Shown piece by piece: positions 1,176 to 54,237 of a DNA stretch of 64,000 nt (positions within the stretch are counted from its first letter, which is position 1; each line of letters begins with the position of its first letter). The stretch comes from Candidatus Aenigmatarchaeota archaeon (GTDB lineage Archaea > Aenigmatarchaeota > Aenigmatarchaeia > GW2011-AR5). A model generated the notes under the pieces. The model was not told the origin of the DNA. It ran no database searches and saw only the letters and a program-made list of their open reading frames with translations. Where the stretch lies: contig JACPDL010000003.1 in NCBI GenBank assembly GCA_016184005.1, forward strand, positions 380,974 through 444,973. The letters are read 5' to 3'. The position numbers and the translations under genes were made by a program.

Positions 1176-3467
1176 TTATTCGATAAACGGATAATAAACT
1201 TGCTGTTCTACTGGCAACTTGATGCTTGCTATTTCTTTTAAACTGTCCAAGCTGTTCGCCTTTATCATTGCTTCGGAAACCGTGTAGAGAACATTGCCTA
1301 TATACAACGACCTTCTGACAGGAAATCTAGGATAAAAAGATTCAGGTTTCTCTGTATAGTTTTCTGGATCATGTGATATTCTCCCTTTCAATGTGAAGCC
1401 GTCTTGCAGTGTAAGATCAAAGACATAAGCGCCTTGCCATGTGTACTGGTAGTCTTTTTCTGCTAAGAGAACAGGCAGTACCAGCAAGTTCCTGTCTTTG
1501 CTGAAGAGGAATGCTTTATGGTCGTATAAAGCATCTGAGCTTGTGCCTCTGTCGCCGATCTCGTATTTTGCAAGCTCTCTGGGATTTGAGACGTCGCTAA
1601 CATCGAATAGTGATAACTTTAGTCCGCTGAAAGTTACCCTGCCGTATACTTCTTCCGTAGCCTGACCAACCCCTATGATATGGTTCTCGTCGTAAGGGTG
1701 CAGATAATCAGAGACGCCAGGTATCTTGAGCTCGCCAAGGACCTTCGGGTTTCTAGGATCGCTTAGGTCTACAACAAAGAGCGGGTCTATGCGCACGAAA
1801 GTGACAAGGTAAGCGCGGTCGCCGATAAACCGTGCCGAGAAAATCCTTTCCCCGGGAGCAAGATCTTCGACCTTACCGATGATGTTCATGTCGCTGTCAA
1901 GGACATAGAGATGGTTTGCCGACGAAACCCCTGACCTGACAGGAGGTGGAGGATCAATCGCTATCATTGTTTGCCTAGGCTTCTCTGGTTCTGGAGTCGC
2001 TATATTTGTTTGCTCAGGCTTATCTGGTTCCGTCTGTGGTTCTGGTTCTGATGGAGCGGCCTGTGAAACGGCTGCGCCTGCTTCGCTGACAGGGCTACTA
2101 CTACTTACAGCAACGCCAACTGTAACTCCAAAGCCCCCGGAACCGCCTGTCGTTGTCGCAATCCTGAAGTAACCGTTGTACTCGTCCATCGAGAACTGAT
2201 TAAGAGGCTGTCCCGGGACTTCGCCGCGCGTTTTGTATATTATCTCGCCGCTGCTGATGGATATCTTGTGTATAACGCTCTTGTCTGTTTCTTTGGCAAT
2301 TCCGGCGCGTATTTCTGAAGCTTTTTCTTCCCAAGCCTTGGCAACTTCTGCGGCTTTTTCAGGTCCCAGCGACTCGAACCAGCCCTGCACGGCTTCTGCA
2401 AGCTCGCTCTCTTTTTCGTAGTAAGGCCTGACAGACTGCATGATCTGCCTTATCTTGTCCGCCACATCTTCCGGCACTAACGGCAGGATTACTTCTTCAA
2501 TAATCCTGTCCTGAAGAATCGAAGGCTTGACTCTTTTCTGATATGTCAGGAATATGTTGTCCTTTGAGACAAACATGGCATTAGAATAGCCAAGCAGAAA
2601 CACTTTGCTTTGCGGTTCCTTGCTGTCGTCATTGACGTTTACAGAAATTATGGTTGTTAGCTGGTAAGAATAATCAGGAAAATCGAAATAGTAGACATCA
2701 GGCGAGCCTGAGAGCGGAACTACTATATCATCACCATAATACTGAATAGGTGCATTTACAACTGCGTAAACATAGTCGCCGACCATGCGAGAATTGTAGT
2801 AGCTGCCGTTCATTGAGAGTTCTCTTTTCAGGGCAGGACTGGATCTGTCTGAAATATCATAAACCTTTATCATGGTGTTTGGAAAAGAAGGCCTGATTAA
2901 CATCTTGGATTCAACAGGCATGTCTTCAGCAACCAGAGGCTGTATGTAATAGTTATTGTAGATGTTCGTGAAGACGACAAGCCTGTTGCCATTTACATAG
3001 AGTCCGTCTATGTTGCTTCCGCTTAGGTTGATTGTCGATATAATCGCTGCGTTTTCTGCAGGGTAAGCATCAGTTATTACAACGTTGCTTCCTGCAACCG
3101 TGTAAATGTACTTGCCGTCGTTCTTTACCGTATCAGCCTCATCAACTCCGGCAACTTGGATGTTTGTGGTTGAATAATCATCAGCTGCAGCTTTACTTTC
3201 TGCGCCCGCTTGCATCGGGGCTCCTGCGTCCATTGTTGCAAGAGCCCGGCCTGCATAGATGCCGCCTGCCTGCTGGTTGGACTTTATGAAATCCTTCAGC
3301 TCCGCGAGTGAAGAGAATTTCTTCAGCTCGTCCCCGGATGAAAGCGATGGCTGCTGATAATTGTTGAGAAAGAGGAACGCAAAGCCCGCAACTATGATAA
3401 CAAACAAAGCAGCGTATACTGCTGTCGGGGGTTGTTCAGAACTTCCCTTAGCGTTCTTCCTGGCCAT
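1176..3467 (-). CDS. Secreted or membrane-anchored beta-propeller domain protein (PF09826-like) with an N-terminal TM helix.
   Basis: 763 aa. The N-terminal hydrophobic segment is AVYAALFVIIVAGFAFLF. The C-terminal region has repeated motifs (YVLDSDMNIIGKV, RAYLVTFVRIDPLFVVDLSDPRNPKVLGELKIPGVSDYLHPYDENHIIGVG) typical of the archaeal/bacterial Beta_propel family. A Pro/Glu/Thr-rich linker is present. Confidence 0.55.
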   Translation of the reverse strand: MARKNAKGSSEQPPTAVYAALFVIIVAGFAFLFLNNYQQPSLSSGDELKKFSSLAELKDFIKSNQQAGGIYAGRALATMDAGAPMQAGAESKAAADDYSTTNIQVAGVDEADTVKNDGKYIYTVAGSNVVITDAYPAENAAIISTINLSGSNIDGLYVNGNRLVVFTNIYNNYYIQPLVAEDMPVESKMLIRPSFPNTMIKVYDISDRSSPALKRELSMNGSYYNSRMVGDYVYAVVNAPIQYYGDDIVVPLSGSPDVYYFDFPDYSYQLTTIISVNVNDDSKEPQSKVFLLGYSNAMFVSKDNIFLTYQKRVKPSILQDRIIEEVILPLVPEDVADKIRQIMQSVRPYYEKESELAEAVQGWFESLGPEKAAEVAKAWEEKASEIRAGIAKETDKSVIHKISISSGEIIYKTRGEVPGQPLNQFSMDEYNGYFRIATTTGGSGGFGVTVGVAVSSSSPVSEAGAAVSQAAPSEPEPQTEPDKPEQTNIATPEPEKPRQTMIAIDPPPPVRSGVSSANHLYVLDSDMNIIGKVEDLAPGERIFSARFIGDRAYLVTFVRIDPLFVVDLSDPRNPKVLGELKIPGVSDYLHPYDENHIIGVGQATEEVYGRVTFSGLKLSLFDVSDVSNPRELAKYEIGDRGTSSDALYDHKAFLFSKDRNLLVLPVLLAEKDYQYTWQGAYVFDLTLQDGFTLKGRISHDPENYTEKPESFYPRFPVRRSLYIGNVLYTVSEAMIKANSLDSLKEIASIKLPVEQQVYYPFIE

Positions 3468-3483
3468 GCAGCTAATATTGGCT

Positions 3484-4011
3484 TTATTCTATATATAAAC
3501 TTCTTTTTGTTAGGGTCCTCGCCCTAAGATATTTTATCGCGAAAAATGCAAAGCCAAGTAAGGCTATAATGATCAATGCAATACCAAAAATTAAATCAAT
3601 ACTCATGATATTTTCTGCAGCTGCAGTTATTGCAGGAGCATCAGCAGCTGTTGTAGTTTCTGCTATTTTCAATGACTGAGCTGCATATTGTGGTTGACTA
3701 ATTGTATACAGATAGCCTCCTGCAATCAAGCTTATGATTGATGAAAATAGTATTGACCAGGAGTATTGCGGCTTGCTAAGATCCTGGGCTTTAGGTGTAA
3801 GACTATAGTATATCCATTTGCTTCCTTCTTTTCTCTGAACAAGGCTGGATTTTTCTAAGACATTCAGGTGCTCTGAGACTGTTGTTACATGTTTTCCAAG
3901 CAATTTTGAAAGTTCTGAGGCAGTGTAAGGCCTATTTGAAAGGAGTTTGATTATTTCTTGACGTGTTTTGGTGTTCAAAGCTTTCAACGTAGGAGAATCA
4001 AGAACGTTCAT
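3484..4011 (-). CDS. ArsR-family winged-helix transcriptional regulator with a C-terminal membrane anchor.
   Basis: 175 aa. The N-terminal HTH (ELSKLLGKHVTTVSEHLNVLEKSSLVQRK) resembles ArsR/SmtB. The C-terminus contains two hydrophobic helices. Confidence 0.55.
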   Translation of the reverse strand: MNVLDSPTLKALNTKTRQEIIKLLSNRPYTASELSKLLGKHVTTVSEHLNVLEKSSLVQRKEGSKWIYYSLTPKAQDLSKPQYSWSILFSSIISLIAGGYLYTISQPQYAAQSLKIAETTTAADAPAITAAAENIMSIDLIFGIALIIIALLGFAFFAIKYLRARTLTKRSLYIE

Positions 4012-4110
4012 TAGAACATTTGAGGAAAAAAGACTTATTAAGGTTGCGGTTTGTTAGGGCGCCGCCGGGATTGTAAACTAACTAGATGCCAACTAGGCAA
4101 GGCGGCCCGT

Positions 4111-5043
4111 TTAATCTACGCACGCATTTATTTCTTCGTTTCTTATCATCTGGCCGTTCACGGCTTTTTCAAACTCTGCCAGGGATTTCGGGCCGATGAT
4201 TGTGGCGTTTCCTATGAAGAACGTCGGAGTGCCGTAAACGCCCGCGGCCTGTCCGTCCATGAAATCTTTCTTGACCTCTTCCAGATATTTCTGCGAATCA
4301 ATGCACTCGTCAAACCTTGCGGCATCAAGCCCTGCGGCCTTTGCCAGCGCCTTGAATGCATTGATGCTGTCAAGCTCCTTCTGCTTCTCAAACATCATGT
4401 CATGATACTTCCAGTAAAGCGCGTTCCCCTGTTCATGCGCGCATTCAGAAGCTTCTGCAGCCTCTGTGCTGAGCCTGTGCCTTTTGACAGGAAAGTTCCT
4501 GAAGACAAGCCTGATTTTGCCCTCATATTTTTTCAGCAGCTCTTTCATCACGGGCTCTGCCTTTTTCGTGTAAGGGCAGAGGTGGCAGCCGAATTCCACG
4601 ATTGTTATGTTGCCGCTTCCGGTGGACGGGTCGTCGTCTTCCGTGACAAGTTCCGGCCTCAGCGCTGCCGAGGACCCGACTATCGATGCGCCTTCCGGGT
4701 TTAAAATGCATATGTCTGTTGATTCGGGGCCGTTGCAGTTGCCGTAAACAGCGAGGTTATAGCCTCCCAGGCCGGCAAGGAAAAGGCTCGCAATCATTGA
4801 GGCAAGGAAAAGCCATGACAGCAGTTCAAATCTCCTGTATACAAGTCTTCCGAGTTTCTCCGATCTCTTCATCAGGCTTGCTGTTATCTTTGCCTTCATC
4901 TTCCGGTTGAATTCCGTGTCGCACGGCCTGAATGTCACCGTTCTGGAGACGCACCGGAACGCCTCCTTTGCATAAGCCCTGTACTTTGCCGAGAATATGC
5001 CAAGGATGCCGAATACAACAGCAGCTATTATGCAGAAAACCAT
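4111..5043 (-). CDS. Membrane-anchored DsbA-like thiol:disulfide oxidoreductase.
   Basis: 310 aa. It has N-terminal TM segments followed by a thioredoxin-fold domain. The CxxC active site is FGCHLCPYT. DsbA-family motifs include GTPTFFIGN. This fits the many Cys-rich exported proteins encoded nearby. Confidence 0.6.
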   Translation of the reverse strand: MVFCIIAAVVFGILGIFSAKYRAYAKEAFRCVSRTVTFRPCDTEFNRKMKAKITASLMKRSEKLGRLVYRRFELLSWLFLASMIASLFLAGLGGYNLAVYGNCNGPESTDICILNPEGASIVGSSAALRPELVTEDDDPSTGSGNITIVEFGCHLCPYTKKAEPVMKELLKKYEGKIRLVFRNFPVKRHRLSTEAAEASECAHEQGNALYWKYHDMMFEKQKELDSINAFKALAKAAGLDAARFDECIDSQKYLEEVKKDFMDGQAAGVYGTPTFFIGNATIIGPKSLAEFEKAVNGQMIRNEEINACVD

Positions 5044-8995: not shown

Positions 8996-9036
8996 TTGTT
9001 AAGCTTTTTATCTGATGTAGTTAGTTAAAATTAATT

Positions 9037-9250
9037 GGGCCTGTAGCTCAGAGCAAATCCCTTTTCTTGGAAGAAAATGTCTTTGCATGTCCCAAAAGAA
9101 CGTGCAGGGATATTACAAGAAGATTTGGGATTGCGAGCAACCTGGTAGTTGCTTTTGATGCAACAGCAAGCACTCGCCTCTATTTCTAGTTGAAAAAGAC
9201 TGGAAAGGGCAATAAGCGAGGAGTCGCGGGTTCGAATCCCGTCGGGCCCA
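9037..9250 (+). tRNA. tRNA, probably Lys (anticodon CUU), interrupted by three introns. Exons are about 9037-9051, 9141-9148, 9169-9181 and 9213-9250.
   Basis: The acceptor stem GGGCCTG/CGGGCCC and T arm GCGGG-TTCGAAT-CCCGT are seen directly. Joining the four exons gives a canonical 74-nt tRNA: GGGCCUG UA GCUC AGCCUGGUA GAGC A CUCGC CUCUUAA GCGAG GAGUC GCGGG UUCGAAU CCCGU CGGGCCC A. Intron 1 (9052-9140) has a perfect BHB central helix GCTC/GAGC. Intron 3 (9182-9212) has the central helix GCCT/GGGC plus a 9-bp distal helix, which places the 5' cut after 9181 and gives anticodon CUU. If the junction is shifted, CAU or CUA become possible. The intron 2 motif is weak. Confidence 0.7.
9054..9110 (+). 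repeat. 57-nt two-hairpin element (copy A), nested inside tRNA-Lys intron 1.
   Basis: The sequence is caaatccc-TTTTCTT-gg-AAGAAAA-...-stem-cccaaaagaac-stem'. It is about 85% identical to copies at 9685-9741 (+) and 43591-43651 (-). Stem positions differ in compensating ways, while the loop cccaaaagaac is conserved. Confidence 0.6.
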
Positions 9251-9255
9251 TACTT

Positions 9256-38461: not shown

Positions 38462-38722
38462 TCACATGTTATAAAAAAGAGTCCAGGAGACTATCCAAGC
38501 AAGGAAGAACGTGGTTACCGGGCTCAGCCACCACTTCTTTTCCTTTTTCACGCTGAAAGCCTTTTTTGCAAGTAATGAAAGGCAAATGAATGCCACGACT
38601 GCGACCGCCAGACTTACAAGCGGCCGGTTCAGCAGAAAGGACACATAACCGGTGACGATACCTGCGAGAACATTCGCAATAGTTACCTTGATTTCTTCGT
38701 CAAAATATTTCATATTCTTCAC
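38462..38722 (-). CDS. Small membrane protein.
   Basis: 86 aa with two or three TM helices. Its start overlaps the rnhB stop (ATGA). Confidence 0.3.
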   Translation of the reverse strand: MKNMKYFDEEIKVTIANVLAGIVTGYVSFLLNRPLVSLAVAVVAFICLSLLAKKAFSVKKEKKWWLSPVTTFFLAWIVSWTLFYNM

Positions 38723-39418
38723 TCAGTCCTGCTTATGAAGCTCATTACATTGCTTTGCTCTTTTTCTTTTTTCATCAATGTGGCCGTTATCCAGGACTTC
38801 CTTACAATGTCCGGGAAGTCTTTGTTATCTTGTAGCCAATTCTTTAAAAACGCTATAGTGCGTTCGTCGGAAGTGTAACCGGAGCCGAAGAAGCCGTATT
38901 TATGATGAAGCTTGCTTATTTCCGCGTCGCGATGAACCTTGGCAATTATCGAGGCTGCGCCGACCTCGGGGTATTTCTTGTCGGCAAAATTCTCCGCTAC
39001 CAGTTCAAACCGGGTGTGCTTGAGCCTGCAAAGGACCTTTTCCCTGAACCTTTTTGTATTTGCTTCTGGCGCATCGATCACCGCTTTTCCGGGGCAAAGC
39101 AGGTCTATCATCTGCTGCATGCGCTCTATCTCAATCCTGTTAAGATTGGTTTCCGTTCTTAATTTGTCTATTTCCTGCGGCGATATGGACAGCACAACAA
39201 GATCTTCAGCCATCTTCTTCAGCCTGGGCACGAGGCTTTCCCTTTTCTCAGGCGTAAGTTGCTTTGAGTCTTTGACGCCCAGTTCCCTTAGCTCTCCAAT
39301 CTTGCCTTCCTTCACAAGATAGCCGCACATCACAAGCGGGCCGATGACAGGTCCTAACGGCAAGTGAAACTAAATTTCACTTTCTACCGGCTTCATCGAT
39401 ACCCAAAACATTTCTCAA
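38719..39418 (-). CDS. rnhB: Ribonuclease HII interrupted by a 28-nt BHB intron. Exon 1 runs from about 39384 to a TTG start (39404-39406 or 39416-39418). The intron is 39356..39383. Exon 2 is 38719..39355.
   Basis: The ORF-track ORF starts with TTG at LPLGPVIGPLV and lacks the catalytic DEAGRG motif. Immediately upstream, in another frame, lies GGT ATC GAT GAA GCC GGT AGA (GIDEAGR). Removing 28 nt (A-AAGTGAAA-TTTAG-TTTCACTT-GCCG-TT) joins the two pieces as GIDEAGR-GPVIGPLV, the canonical RNase HII N-terminus. The downstream motifs IDAPE, ADKKYPEVGAASIIAK and GSGYTSD are intact. Confidence 0.7.
39356..39383 (-). ncRNA. 28-nt bulge-helix-bulge intron inside the rnhB coding region.
   Basis: The central 4-bp helix is CGGT (exon 1 end) paired with GCCG (intron). 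Each side has a 3-nt bulge (AG|A and TT|A), with cuts after the second bulge nucleotide. The distal helix is 8 bp, AAGTGAAA/TTTCACTT, with loop TTTAG. The architecture matches the tRNA-Lys intron 1 and tRNA-iMet T-loop intron in this window. Confidence 0.65.
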
Positions 39419-40431
39419 ATCACTATCACCTCTTTATCTATAGGTAACTTGTTCCATAAGTATTGTTTTTGTTGTATTAATTTCAATCTCTGCATTTCGT
39501 CGAGTCTCTTTTTTGCAGCTTTCCAGTTTACATCTAATAGTTTAGCAATTTCGCTTGTTTTACATGGGATTTCAAGAAGTTGTAGTATTTCTGACTTTCT
39601 TTGGGAAATAATAATCATATTCAAGTCTGATCTAATCCAGTAATCTCTACTAAGACATCTATAATTTGTAATTTTACCTTCTCTTTTTAATGCTGTTAAG
39701 TGATCTTGCAGAGTAGCTTGTTTTCGATTAAAAATTATAGAAAGTTCTTTGCTAGTTACAGGCTTTGAAAGGTATTGTAAAATATTATTTCTGATATAAT
39801 TTGACGGATAGTGAATTTCTTTGAAAGATTTCCAAGTAGCTAAGAACTTAGCTCTTTTATCTGGATGCAAAACAAATAAATTATATTTATAAAATTTTTC
39901 CCAATTACTCCAACCAGTAATTACATAGGCACGTTCACGTGTGGAAAAGGTGGATTTTATATCAAGATATTTTAGTATTTTATCTATCAACTCTATCTTT
40001 TCTTTTTGAGCAATTCTTATTGTTCTGTTAGAATGAACTCCTGATTTTATATTGCCTTCTCCTGCAAAAAATCCTTTCAGTACGGGAACAAAATATTTTT
40101 CCTGTGATGTAATTTTAGATACTATTTTTCTCCATTTTATTACATCTTTAGTATTCGCATAACGCAAAATGTGATATGGTTTTCTAGCTCTAATATCTTT
40201 ATAGAGTTGGGCTCTGCAATTTCTTAACTTCAATGATTGACCACCATTAGGTGAATAAGTATAAAGTCTGAATTTATTTTTAGGAAATATTTTTGAAAGT
40301 GTTTGATAGAATAGCTTGACAAGTAATTCACAATTATTTGTAAAAGTTATTTCTCTAATTGTTTTATCATCTCCTTCAGCAATCCAAAGTCCGACACATT
40401 CTGCTAATCTATTGGACCAATTATCTGTCAT
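39415..40431 (-). CDS. Free-standing double-motif LAGLIDADG homing endonuclease with a C-terminal winged-helix domain.
   Basis: 338 aa. The two LAGLIDADG-like motifs are ECVGLWIAEGD and LKGFFAGEGNI. A C-terminal HTH (SEIAKLLDVNWKAAKKRLDEM) follows. The gene is AT-rich (about 30% GC), unlike its neighbours. Confidence 0.6.
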   Translation of the reverse strand: MTDNWSNRLAECVGLWIAEGDDKTIREITFTNNCELLVKLFYQTLSKIFPKNKFRLYTYSPNGGQSLKLRNCRAQLYKDIRARKPYHILRYANTKDVIKWRKIVSKITSQEKYFVPVLKGFFAGEGNIKSGVHSNRTIRIAQKEKIELIDKILKYLDIKSTFSTRERAYVITGWSNWEKFYKYNLFVLHPDKRAKFLATWKSFKEIHYPSNYIRNNILQYLSKPVTSKELSIIFNRKQATLQDHLTALKREGKITNYRCLSRDYWIRSDLNMIIISQRKSEILQLLEIPCKTSEIAKLLDVNWKAAKKRLDEMQRLKLIQQKQYLWNKLPIDKEVIVI

Positions 40432-40540
40432 CAGTCTATAATTCTATATTTAGAGCTATAAAATTATCTGTAGTAAAGAAACTAGAACTTTACTGAAGTA
40501 ACTCATCAATTAGAATAAATACAGCGTTTTAAAAGAAGAG

Positions 40541-40798
40541 CTATCTTCCGTCGCGTGTAATGATTCGTCCCCTATAGGAATTGTTTACTGGAACAGGAAC
40601 CGGTACGGGCGAGAGTGCATATCCCATGCGTTCCAATATTGAACCAAGATATCCGCCTTTCTTGAAGGCGTGATGCAGTTGTAATGCAAGTCTTGGATCA
40701 GAAGTAAGTTCCTGCAAGCTATGTGGCTGTGGATAATGCCTCATTACTATTCTATTAATGAAATAACTATTTATTTCTACGATTAAAATTCCTGCCAT
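40541..40798 (-). CDS. Hypothetical protein.
   Basis: 85-aa ORF between the LAGLIDADG genes. It has a Pro-Val repeat (PVPVPVPV). Low confidence that it is real. Confidence 0.25.
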   Translation of the reverse strand: MAGILIVEINSYFINRIVMRHYPQPHSLQELTSDPRLALQLHHAFKKGGYLGSILERMGYALSPVPVPVPVNNSYRGRIITRDGR

Positions 40799-40831
40799 TT
40801 ATAAACATTTGCTCCCATTTGTTATTGCTAT

Positions 40832-40968
40832 AGCGGAGTGGAGCATTGATTTTAGAAATTTCTATAATCACTCGAAGCCTGGAGTGCTCGTCGGGCCCAT
40901 AACCCGAAGGCCAGAGGTTCAAAAACAAGTCACAAAAATGGGACTTGTGGAATTTCCTCTCTCCGCTA
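40832..40968 (+). tRNA. Initiator tRNA-Met (anticodon CAU) with two non-canonical introns, one in the D arm (about 31-34 nt) and one in the T loop (40924-40954).
   Basis: It has an A1:U72 acceptor pair (AGCGGAG/CTCCGCT, discriminator A). The anticodon stem TCGGG/CCCGA has three consecutive G:C pairs. The anticodon loop is CCCATAA (CAU). The T stem AGAGG/CCTCT is split by a 31-nt insert with the BHB layout A-ACAAGTC-loop-GACTTGT-GGAA-TT (central helix TTCA/GGAA, 3 of 4 pairs). The D stem GAGC/GCTC is separated by about 41 nt that includes the hairpin GATT-T-TAGAAATTTCTA-TA-ATC. The exact D-arm junction is ambiguous. Confidence 0.7.
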
Positions 40969-41733
40969 TTTACTATTTAATTCTTGTAAAGCAGAAAATG
41001 CTCTTTTATTATTCTTATTCCTTTCCTTCCAAAGTTGGAATTTTTTAAGATGTTTTGGATGACGAAAACCTATAAGCTGCATCCATTTCACAAGTTGTAA
41101 ATGGCCATAAATAGCGATTTCGTACTTGAGTATTTTCTTTTTTACTCTTGGATCATAATAATTATGTGTAAATCTACTTACACTAAAACCTTCTGATTCC
41201 AAGAAGTCAGCTATTTCATCTCTTAATATTCTTGACTTTGATACTCCATTTATTACAGGATAATATTGATAATTCTTGTATCTTCTTTTTAACGAGATGC
41301 ATAAATCTGTATCTGCAAATCCTTGTATAAAAGATTTCATCATTTCTTTACTATCTAAGAAAATTGTTGGTATTTTAATATTGTCTTTTCGCCCACTTGG
41401 AAGACCTATAATTTTCGTTAAAAATAAAACCAACGATTTAGATCGTAGTGTAAATCCATAAGTATTATCCCTTTCATGTAGTTTATTCTTAATCTTGGAG
41501 TTAAATAATTTGTAGAACAAATCTAACAAAACTTTATCATAAAATTCTCTTTCATCAAGCTGATTGCCGAGACACGTTACAGAATATTCATGTTTATCAA
41601 ATCTCGTATGTATATTTCCATCTCCTGCTAGAACACCACAAACATAGGCAAGATCTTTTGTAGATTCAATTGGAAGAAAGAAATCTTTTGATTTTTCCTG
41701 TCTAGTCAATTCTATAGTAGAAATATCTAACAT
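40966..41733 (-). CDS. Free-standing double-motif LAGLIDADG homing endonuclease.
   Basis: 255 aa. The motifs are LAYVCGVLAGDGNI and FIQGFADTDLCI. AT-rich. Its TAG stop overlaps the 3' end of tRNA-iMet by 3 nt. Confidence 0.65.
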   Translation of the reverse strand: MLDISTIELTRQEKSKDFFLPIESTKDLAYVCGVLAGDGNIHTRFDKHEYSVTCLGNQLDEREFYDKVLLDLFYKLFNSKIKNKLHERDNTYGFTLRSKSLVLFLTKIIGLPSGRKDNIKIPTIFLDSKEMMKSFIQGFADTDLCISLKRRYKNYQYYPVINGVSKSRILRDEIADFLESEGFSVSRFTHNYYDPRVKKKILKYEIAIYGHLQLVKWMQLIGFRHPKHLKKFQLWKERNKNNKRAFSALQELNSK

Positions 41734-49426: not shown

Positions 49427-49637
49427 TGCGAGGGGTCGGATTTGAACCGACGAACGGACTAACCGACAAGGTTTCTTACAAAGCGTATGACACACTTTGT
49501 GTGTCTGTCGGCTTCTCTGAGCTACGCCTTAGTCCTAAGCTTCGCCTTAGTTAATCTTGCGCCTTTTTCTGTAATCCTTTCCGTTAACGCTTTTCGCGTG
49601 AGCCGGAAAGGGTTAGACCATGCTTGGCTACCCTCGC
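49427..49637 (-). tRNA. tRNA with a long variable arm, probably Leu (anticodon UAG). It carries a 61-nt canonical anticodon intron (about 49473-49533) and at least one further intron in the D-arm region.
   Basis: The acceptor stem is GCGAGGG/CCCTCGC with discriminator A. The T arm is GTCGG-TTCAAAT-CCGAC. The D loop AAGCATGGTCTAA is Leu/Ser-like. The anticodon loop is CTTAGGA. The canonical 37/38 intron has a perfect central helix CTTA/TAAG. A Leu-type variable arm TCGGTTAGTCCGTTC is present. How the D arm joins the anticodon stem could not be resolved; the intervening 'CTAAGGCG' is tandemly duplicated. Confidence 0.6.
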
Positions 49638-54113: not shown

Positions 54114-54237
54114 TGCTCTCGGCGGGATTTGAACCCGCGTCCGCGGCGATCTCCAGTTTTTCCCCGAGGGCTTTTGCGCCTCAGCGGAAAAGGGCTCTGA
54201 GAGGCCACTATCCTTGACCGGGCTAGACTACGAGAGC
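54114..54237 (-). tRNA. tRNA-Glu (anticodon CUC) with a 49-nt canonical 37/38 intron (54149-54197).
   Basis: The acceptor stem is GCTCTCG/CGAGAGC with discriminator A. The D arm is GTCT-AGCCCGGTCAA-GGAT. The anticodon stem is GTGGC/GCCGC and the loop is CUCUCA|C. The T arm is GCGGG-TTCAAAT-CCCGC. The intron's BHB central helix is CTCT/GGAG with bulges CA|G and AT|C. Confidence 0.75.

Follow-up and report, generated by a model that had tools for sequence, protein, structure and literature searches.

LAGLIDADG gene families beside the intron-bearing initiator tRNA gene and rnhB of an Aenigmatarchaeota archaeon

The stretch analysed here, 64,000 nt of contig JACPDL010000003.1 from a Candidatus Aenigmatarchaeota archaeon (called the window below), holds an initiator tRNA-Met (tRNA-iMet) gene and rnhB, the gene for RNase HII. 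Both genes are interrupted by introns of the bulge-helix-bulge (BHB) type, and each is accompanied by a LAGLIDADG gene. The 338-residue open reading frame (ORF) 39415-40431 was named LHE338 and the 255-residue ORF 40966-41733 LHE255, both on the minus strand; the same names are used for their families. Loci fetched for comparison are designated by L numbers.

The locus and its introns

The features of the locus, in window coordinates, are the following.

38719-39355, minus strand: rnhB exon 2 (Pfam RNase_HII, 1.5e-38)
39356-39383, minus strand: BHB intron of the rnhB mRNA, 28 nt; the reading frame is restored on splicing
39384-39406, minus strand: rnhB exon 1, TTG GGT ATC GAT GAA GCC GGT AG, read as M-G-I-D-E-A-G-R
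39415-40431, minus strand: LHE338, I-DmoI-type double-LAGLIDADG protein with two winged-helix domains, 338 aa, upstream partner of rnhB
40432-40831, no strand: spacer of 400 nt between the tRNA gene and LHE338, 36% GC, with an 85-aa ORF (40541-40798, minus strand)
40832-40968, plus strand: tRNA-iMet(CAU) gene, exons 40832-40844, 40876-40923 and 40955-40968, based on the spliced cloverleaf and orthologues
40845-40875, plus strand: D-loop BHB intron of 31 nt, position 13/14 (equivalent to 14/15)
40924-40954, plus strand: T-loop BHB intron of 31 nt, position 59/60
40966-41733, minus strand: LHE255, free-standing I-DmoI-type double-LAGLIDADG gene, 255 aa, its stop overlapping tRNA nt 71-73

The two LAGLIDADG ORFs have a GC content of 29.5% and 28.9%, against 46.6-49.7% for rnhB, Pus10 and the aspartyl-tRNA synthetase (AspRS) gene, in agreement with the original prediction of two double-motif genes at about 30% GC. 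That prediction also placed both genes immediately beside the tRNA, which holds for LHE255, overlapping the tRNA end, and not for LHE338, set apart by the 400-nt spacer. The intron-containing rnhB is indeed the next gene downstream, 8 nt beyond the LHE338 stop. Between AspRS/rnhB on one side and Pus10 on the other, the only ORFs are the two LAGLIDADG ORFs, the 85-aa ORF and short antisense ORFs. The tRNA and LHE338 are presumably transcribed from divergent promoters within the spacer. Neither the spacer nor its 85-aa ORF had a Pfam or Rfam match or a counterpart in any fetched locus; the same place is taken by an unrelated 226-aa ORF in L001 and by a 120-aa ORF in L085, without similarity to the 85-aa ORF. 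In a relative with about 60% protein identity (L001/L003), the gene order Pus10, LHE279, tRNA-iMet, LHE339, rnhB, EMC6, AspRS is that of the window, and the same GC dip is seen at both LAGLIDADG genes. We therefore regard the arrangement as conserved, and do not see it as foreign DNA inserted recently.

The unspliced tRNA-iMet gene is 137 nt long. It was missed by ARAGORN without intron search, and by Rfam both at gathering and at E-value thresholds. The tRNA was spliced by hand, with splice sites set from the orthologue of L051, intron-less in its D arm, and from BHB geometry. For calibration of this geometry we used the rnhB intron, in which an independent check is given by the reading frame; its layout is h, H (4 nt, exon), B1 (2 exon nt and 1 intron nt), h' hairpin, H' (4 nt, intron), B2 (2 intron nt and 1 exon nt), h. 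A scan of double deletions with ARAGORN was dropped for splice-site placement, being too permissive. Deletion of both 31-nt inserts yielded a 75-nt perfect cloverleaf, called tRNA-Met(CAU) by ARAGORN and carrying the archaeal initiator features, namely the CAU anticodon, A1:U72 and G29-G31:C39-C41. The window tRNA is thus, as had been proposed, an initiator tRNA with two non-canonical introns of about 31 nt, in the D arm and in the T loop at 59/60, at sites shared with orthologues; it is an ordinary functional initiator tRNA for its lineage.

With splice junctions marked by ^, the D-loop intron was parsed as H = G10-G12:CUC, B1 = C13 A14^U, h' = UGAUU/AAUCA and B2 = AA^G, and the T-loop intron as H = U54-A57:GGAA (3/4 pairs), B1 = A58 A59^A, h' = ACAAGUC/GACUUGU and B2 = UU^U60. 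Both are relaxed BHB motifs, with three of four H pairs, and their predicted excision yields the perfect cloverleaf. The likeness claimed between the T-loop and rnhB introns was borne out in this relaxed form. In L051 the 59/60 intron is a strict BHB (UUCA/UGAA), there is no D-loop intron, and the D arm is uninterrupted (GAAC-AGCCUGGAGU-GUUC), which is why the window insert was placed at 13/14. Orthologous tRNA-iMet genes were found in L001, L051 and L085-L104. The D-loop site is filled in L001 and L085, by hairpins that differ in sequence and keep their pairing, and the 59/60 site in L001, L051, L085, L086 and L102-L104. The two introns would presumably be removed by the cell's own splicing endonuclease; DPANN splicing endonucleases have broad specificity (PMC5829648).

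The window rnhB gene (38719-39406, minus strand) is split after codon 8 (GIDEAGR^GPVIGP), 23 nt into the gene, and in-silico splicing restores GIDEAGRGPVIGP and a 219-aa RNase HII. Among 81 rnhB genes linked to LHE338 this site is filled in 68; the locus sets were gathered by exact peptide patterns, and frequencies are lower bounds or possibly biased. For 56 of the 68 introns the BHB is strict and the frame is restored. The H/H' helices covary between exon and intron (CGGT/GCCG, CGGA/TCCG, CGGG/CCCG, AGGC/GCCT), the exon Gly codon changing together with the intron. By its sequence this is a genuine BHB intron, and it is a widely conserved archaeal mRNA intron outside cbf5. Multi-intron tRNAs and a BHB intron in cbf5 mRNA are known from Crenarchaeota (PMC2738675). 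The window resembles that system in its non-canonical D-loop and T-loop introns and in having a BHB intron within a protein-coding gene. It differs in the host gene, which is rnhB, in the DPANN-wide occurrence of the intron, and in its consistent pairing with an adjacent LAGLIDADG gene. Neither the conserved rnhB intron nor this pairing was found in the literature that we searched.

LHE255 at the 3' end of the initiator tRNA gene

The TAG stop codon of LHE255 is the complement of tRNA nt 71-73, so that the gene ends inside the tRNA 3' terminus, as predicted. Searched against the PDB, the LHE255 family profile matched I-DmoI (E=8e-8) and also I-Tsp061I and intein endonucleases such as PI-PfuI. 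The two motifs read ..VLAGDGN.. and ..GFADTD.., and G37-D38-G39 as well as D141/D143 are invariant in the family alignment. From its sequence, LHE255 is apparently a competent, monomeric I-DmoI-type LAGLIDADG protein with intact catalytic acids. Close homologues are few, with only 16 in a set of 5.8 billion proteins, and in 2.9 million viral contigs only distant relatives were found.

The family is tethered to tRNA genes. In every context examined (L085-L088), the LHE255 orthologue ends at the 3' end of an intron-rich tRNA-iMet gene on the opposite strand, and the CTA/TAG stop overlap with the tRNA often recurs. In 18 of 24 metagenomic orthologue loci, the iMet anticodon-arm motif was found about 50-120 nt beyond the stop, compared with seven matches to this motif in 397 kb elsewhere. 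More distant relatives (25-37% identity) abut other tRNAs, for His, Arg, Thr, Ser, Gln and others; these genes are often co-directional with the tRNA, the ORF running into the tRNA until a stop codon is met. Over the whole superfamily, ARAGORN placed a tRNA within 60 nt of the stop in 38/81 loci, versus 4% at random positions, and Rfam confirmed the tRNAs beside the distant relatives. No LAGLIDADG family abutting tRNA genes was found in the searched literature.

Like I-DmoI and I-Tsp061I, the proteins of both families have a monomeric double-motif fold, one acidic residue per motif and an archaeal origin. However, the genes for those enzymes are housed in BHB introns of rRNA genes, whereas LHE255 and LHE338 are free-standing: neither ORF is part of a neighbouring intron, and these introns, of only 28-31 nt, hold no ORF. 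LHE338 differs from I-DmoI also by two extra C-terminal winged-helix domains. Rfam detected no group I intron, either in the window or among 19 related loci, and an intron-encoded origin of the tRNA-adjacent ORFs was dropped because no such intron lies next to them.

An empty site is present in L051, where tRNA-iMet is followed after 36 nt by the gene for a SPOUT methyltransferase. In L001 the LHE279 gene stands between these same two genes. The window, L001 and L085 have the gene and L051 lacks it; between the window and L051, the tRNA 3' end differs by an indel of this one gene. It shows the pattern of a sporadic, mobile, free-standing homing endonuclease gene. Synteny had been put forward as a check on whether the two LAGLIDADG genes are an insertion: order and low GC are the same in the relative of about 60% identity, and the locus is largely conserved at the same GC in relatives, against the insertion idea.

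The tRNA introns themselves are tied to LHE255 weakly. Genes for tRNA-iMet beside LHE255-type genes carry 1-5 introns each, none of 20 being intron-less, while 13/25 other tRNA-iMet genes are intron-less (p=1e-4 between the two sets, confounded by lineage). About half of the tRNA-iMet genes in loci L005-L084 are intron-less. Three further tRNA genes of the window bear introns as well.

9036-9251, plus strand: intron-bearing tRNA gene of 216 nt, one or several introns
49427-49637, minus strand: intron-bearing tRNA gene of 211 nt, one or several introns
54114-54237, minus strand: intron-bearing tRNA gene of 124 nt, one or several introns

All three require the ARAGORN intron search to be switched on, with types that are probably mis-called, and only 54114-54237 passes Rfam. 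Introns are therefore present in all four window tRNAs, three of which are 137-216 nt long, and in this genome it is normal for a tRNA to carry several. With its introns, which had been taken as a mark of the locus, tRNA-iMet is therefore not exceptional here.

Two side observations concern other elements. In L144 (about 3380-4800) and L145 (about 1600-3000), an apparent tRNA 5' acceptor and D arm lies upstream of a LAGLIDADG-family ORF of 374-376 aa, this ORF enters a complete tRNA-Arg, and the matching T arm and 3' acceptor follow downstream of that tRNA. This may be a giant intron or a split tRNA enclosing the ORF plus another tRNA. In L085 (1-2057), the Pus10 gene holds an intein (Pfam Intein_splicing inside Pus10_C), another mobile element nearby.

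LHE338 as the partner of rnhB

All 24 LHE338 family members tested against Pfam matched LAGLIDADG_3 (best E=4e-9), 18/24 matched a winged helix-turn-helix (wHTH) domain of TrmB type, and 3/24 weakly matched the WhiA LAGLIDADG domain. In this search, which had been proposed as a check, the two window proteins taken alone gave only LAGLIDADG_3 matches below the gathering threshold. A sequence search of the PDB with the LHE338 profile returned wHTH proteins only. The AlphaFold2 model (pLDDT 92) matched I-DmoI in Foldseek with probability 1.0, E=1e-6 and a TM score of 0.63. This match, and for LHE255 the profile matches, fit the tandem alpha-beta-beta-alpha-beta-beta-alpha core fold of I-DmoI-type enzymes. 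Motifs are ..GLWIAEGD.., with E19 invariant, and ..GFFAGEGN.., whose E125 is kept by at least 90% of members; the family has a constant length and 38 invariant alignment columns. As modelled, LHE338 is apparently a competent, monomeric I-DmoI-type protein with intact active-site acids, and both proteins keep the LAGLIDADG motifs on which the prediction depended. Alignment of the LHE338 and LHE255 families by hhalign was weak, indicating that they are not close paralogues. In Foldseek, the C-terminal wHTH pair (residues about 205-338) resembled the tandem WH2-WH4 domains of SelB, which bind the SECIS RNA hairpin. One possibility raised by the model is that these winged helices bind an RNA hairpin such as the rnhB intron.

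A scan with one genome per species found 80 LHE338 loci, in Nano-, Woese-, Pace-, Micr-, Aenigm-, Iain-, Alti- and Nanohalo-archaeota and in several metagenome-assembled genomes (MAGs) labelled Nitrososphaeria. In 79 of them (archaeal, mostly DPANN MAGs) the gene lies directly upstream of rnhB on the same strand, the exception being a contig end. Across loci, the LHE338 stop comes 2-20 nt before the rnhB start, which suggests that the two genes probably form an operon with translational coupling. Where enough upstream sequence was available (72 loci), at least 18 loci had tRNA-iMet no more than 450 nt upstream of LHE338, at 91-320 nt and in either orientation. The block of tRNA-iMet, LHE338 and rnhB is thus recurrent and widespread in DPANN. 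No DPANN-wide LAGLIDADG-wHTH gene locked to rnhB was found in the searched literature, and NCBIfam has no model for LHE338 or LHE255; within these sources, both families are previously undescribed. The homing-endonuclease activity suspected at the locus has a counterpart in the mobile-gene pattern of LHE255, but the notion of a local hotspot is not supported for LHE338, given its place at rnhB in 79/80 loci.

The cassette of LHE338, rnhB and the intron was also seen in MAGs of high GC content (56-63%), L050, L059, L065, L066 and L073, labelled Thaumarchaeota, Nitrososphaeria or Nitrosopumilales, and further in L067 and L079. Either the cassette reaches beyond DPANN, or those high-GC contigs are mis-binned.

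The GC content of LHE338 tracks that of the host (78 loci, r=0.93, slope 0.65). It is below the host value in 77/78 loci, by a mean of 7.7 points, whereas rnhB matches its host. From this regression, low GC is a family trait of LHE338, and its interpretation as a sign of recent transfer was rejected.

The LHE338 gene is absent at 10 rnhB loci. The rnhB intron was found in two of these ten, versus 68 of 81 with LHE338 (Fisher p=8e-5, not phylogenetically corrected). Among the rnhB genes without LHE338, the one closest to that of the window (L085, 63% identity) is intron-less. One of the two intron-bearing loci without a full LHE338 is L091, where rnhB contains the intron and only the last 24 codons of LHE338 are left upstream of it (about 3660-3800, E=4e-7). 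In this deletion remnant the intron has outlived the endonuclease gene. About 10% of LHE338 copies are frameshifted or interrupted; together with the remnant, they are signs of the life cycle of a homing endonuclease gene. In the closest relative (L051, 8468-8573), a highly structured stretch of about 105 nt, with CTAAGAATA/CTTAGAATA at its borders, interrupts the LHE338 orthologue. This insert could be a miniature inverted-repeat transposable element or one or two mRNA introns, and the copy is not necessarily a simple pseudogene.

Possible homing, possible domestication and the introns

The explanation that we favour, and about which we are evenly divided between belief and doubt, is that both genes would be free-standing homing endonuclease genes parked beside conserved targets, LHE338 being an ancient resident that may have been domesticated. 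The locus would be a conserved archaeal, mainly DPANN, block of tRNA-iMet, LHE338 and rnhB, to which LHE255 would have been added at the tRNA 3' end, each family living beside, and not inside, one conserved gene. We infer that LHE255 would cut the DNA of LHE255-less alleles in or next to the tRNA-iMet gene, and that recombinational repair would then copy the LHE255 gene into the tRNA 3' flank. LHE338 would have arisen as, and may still be, a homing endonuclease directed against the intron-less rnhB 5' region, having reached its place between tRNA-iMet and rnhB by the same route. The rnhB intron would interrupt the LHE338 target site and thereby make its carrier immune, an archaeal BHB version of "collaborative homing".

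Precedent exists in phages, where the free-standing endonuclease F-CphI acts in collaborative homing with a protective, ORF-less psbA intron (PMC6083498), and mobE of T4 undergoes trans homing with I-TevIII (PMC2790892). In both cases, as here, a free-standing endonuclease gene adjoins a conserved gene whose nearby intron lacks a functional ORF; gene and intron co-occur there, and at rnhB they tend to do so. The differences are that those enzymes are Endo VII-like or HNH and not LAGLIDADG, and that their introns are self-splicing group I introns of phages, whereas those of the window are BHB introns spliced by protein, carried on a cellular archaeal chromosome, with cleavage by the enzyme and protection by the intron as predicted functions. 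A further difference is that about 13 lineages keep LHE338 without the intron. Another endonuclease, I-Ssp6803I, belongs to the group I intron of a cyanobacterial tRNA-fMet gene. It is a bacterial enzyme of the PD-(D/E)XK family, encoded inside an intron of the anticodon loop; an initiator tRNA gene would be the conserved target that it shares with LHE255.

Several observations weigh against the homing explanation. On the side of LHE338, the gene co-diverges with rnhB (Mantel r=0.51, 0/999 permutations), with neighbour-joining leaf orders that largely agree; it is slightly more conserved than rnhB (mean identity 43.7% versus 40.7%); its GC is partly ameliorated to each host; and LHE338 is intact beside an intron-less rnhB in about 13 lineages, mainly of one clade, so that the intron is unnecessary for coexistence. 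These are features of a host gene more than of a selfish one. On the side of the tRNA, L051 keeps the 59/60 intron without LHE255, the tRNA-iMet genes of L051, L076 and L082 have 2-5 introns without it, and the four window tRNAs all bear introns with a LAGLIDADG neighbour at tRNA-iMet only.

Its co-divergence with rnhB and its survival where the intron is absent make domestication of LHE338 a strong rival. It is possible, though we lean against it, that LHE338, no longer mobile, has been taken over by the host as an archaeal equivalent of WhiA, only LHE255 being selfish. Such a protein could be a sequence-specific binder of DNA or RNA hairpins, or a nickase, that regulates RNase HII or works with it. 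Adjacency to rnhB in 79/80 loci across phyla speaks for this, as do conservation at least equal to that of rnhB, constant length with 38 invariant columns, a GC content that follows the host, and persistence of the intact gene through a whole clade with intron-less rnhB. The family is moreover compact (88 representatives at E<=1e-30 among 1.84 billion proteins) and had no relative in the 2.9 million viral contigs; its Foldseek matches include WhiA, and its wHTH pair is like the RNA-hairpin-binding domains of SelB. WhiA shares with LHE338 the LAGLIDADG scaffold, a C-terminal HTH, vertical inheritance and conservation, but it is bacterial and has a single HTH, where LHE338 has tandem wHTH domains and is archaeal and locked to rnhB. 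WhiA has reportedly lost its catalytic acids, whereas LHE338, with scaffold and HTH present, keeps both catalytic Glu residues and the motifs around them. Frameshifted, truncated and absent copies of LHE338 also count against domestication, and in the closest comparison (L085 versus the window, L001 and L051) presence of the gene travels with the intron. Finally, old inteins are an example of selfish endonucleases that persist at one site with a host-like phylogeny. The homing explanation can accommodate part of this rival, since by its long vertical retention LHE338 may have gained a host function.

A broader proposal, which we consider rather unlikely, is that free-standing LAGLIDADG enzymes beside tRNA genes and rnhB would supply archaeal BHB introns without an ORF with their engine of DNA-level mobility and selection. 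Intron-less alleles of the adjacent conserved gene would be cut by the endonuclease, and the mini-intron would protect its carrier and hitch-hike with the endonuclease gene, in a collaborative homing of protein-spliced introns. Such pressure would drive the pile-up of introns in DPANN tRNA genes.

It is very improbable that the LAGLIDADG proteins are maturase-like RNA cofactors presenting the BHB introns of tRNA-iMet and rnhB mRNA to the splicing endonuclease. Both genes do adjoin intron-containing genes, LHE338 and the rnhB intron co-occur, and the bI3 LAGLIDADG maturase is found with the SelB winged helices among the structural neighbours of LHE338 in Foldseek. However, the enzyme that cuts BHB introns is a protein with no known cofactor, LHE338 is also kept beside intron-less rnhB genes, many superfamily members abut intron-less tRNAs, the residues for catalysis of DNA cleavage are retained, and the other intron-rich tRNAs of the window have no such neighbour.

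The original prediction also suggested an integrated element with the tRNA as its attachment site, and a GC content of about 29% against about 47% in the flanks, next to a gene of the class classically used for integration, would fit a recent mobile element or provirus remnant; we give this next to no credence and reject it, because the ORF and Pfam scan of the window detected no integrase or other element gene between the conserved flanks, each AT-rich block being exactly one ORF between conserved host genes, because no att-type direct repeat of the tRNA 3' end was found, because synteny and low GC are kept in the 60%-identity relative and low GC is family-wide and scales with host GC, and because the 2.9 million viral contigs hold no close relative of either protein.

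No means of spreading is known for archaeal BHB introns, which occur in tRNAs and rarely in mRNAs, except for those that carry an endonuclease gene. The locus offers two undescribed LAGLIDADG families physically locked to conserved genes, one to tRNA ends and the other to the start of rnhB beside a conserved mRNA intron. The intron-rich tRNAs around them escape standard tRNA finders, so that annotations of these organisms under-count tRNAs. If LHE338 has been domesticated, it would be a new conserved DPANN protein with an intact predicted nuclease site, co-expressed with RNase HII. If instead such enzymes drive the mobility of BHB introns, the rnhB mRNA intron would be a DPANN-wide mobile cassette. 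The two small proteins are thus concrete candidates through which homing endonucleases may be linked to BHB introns without an ORF.

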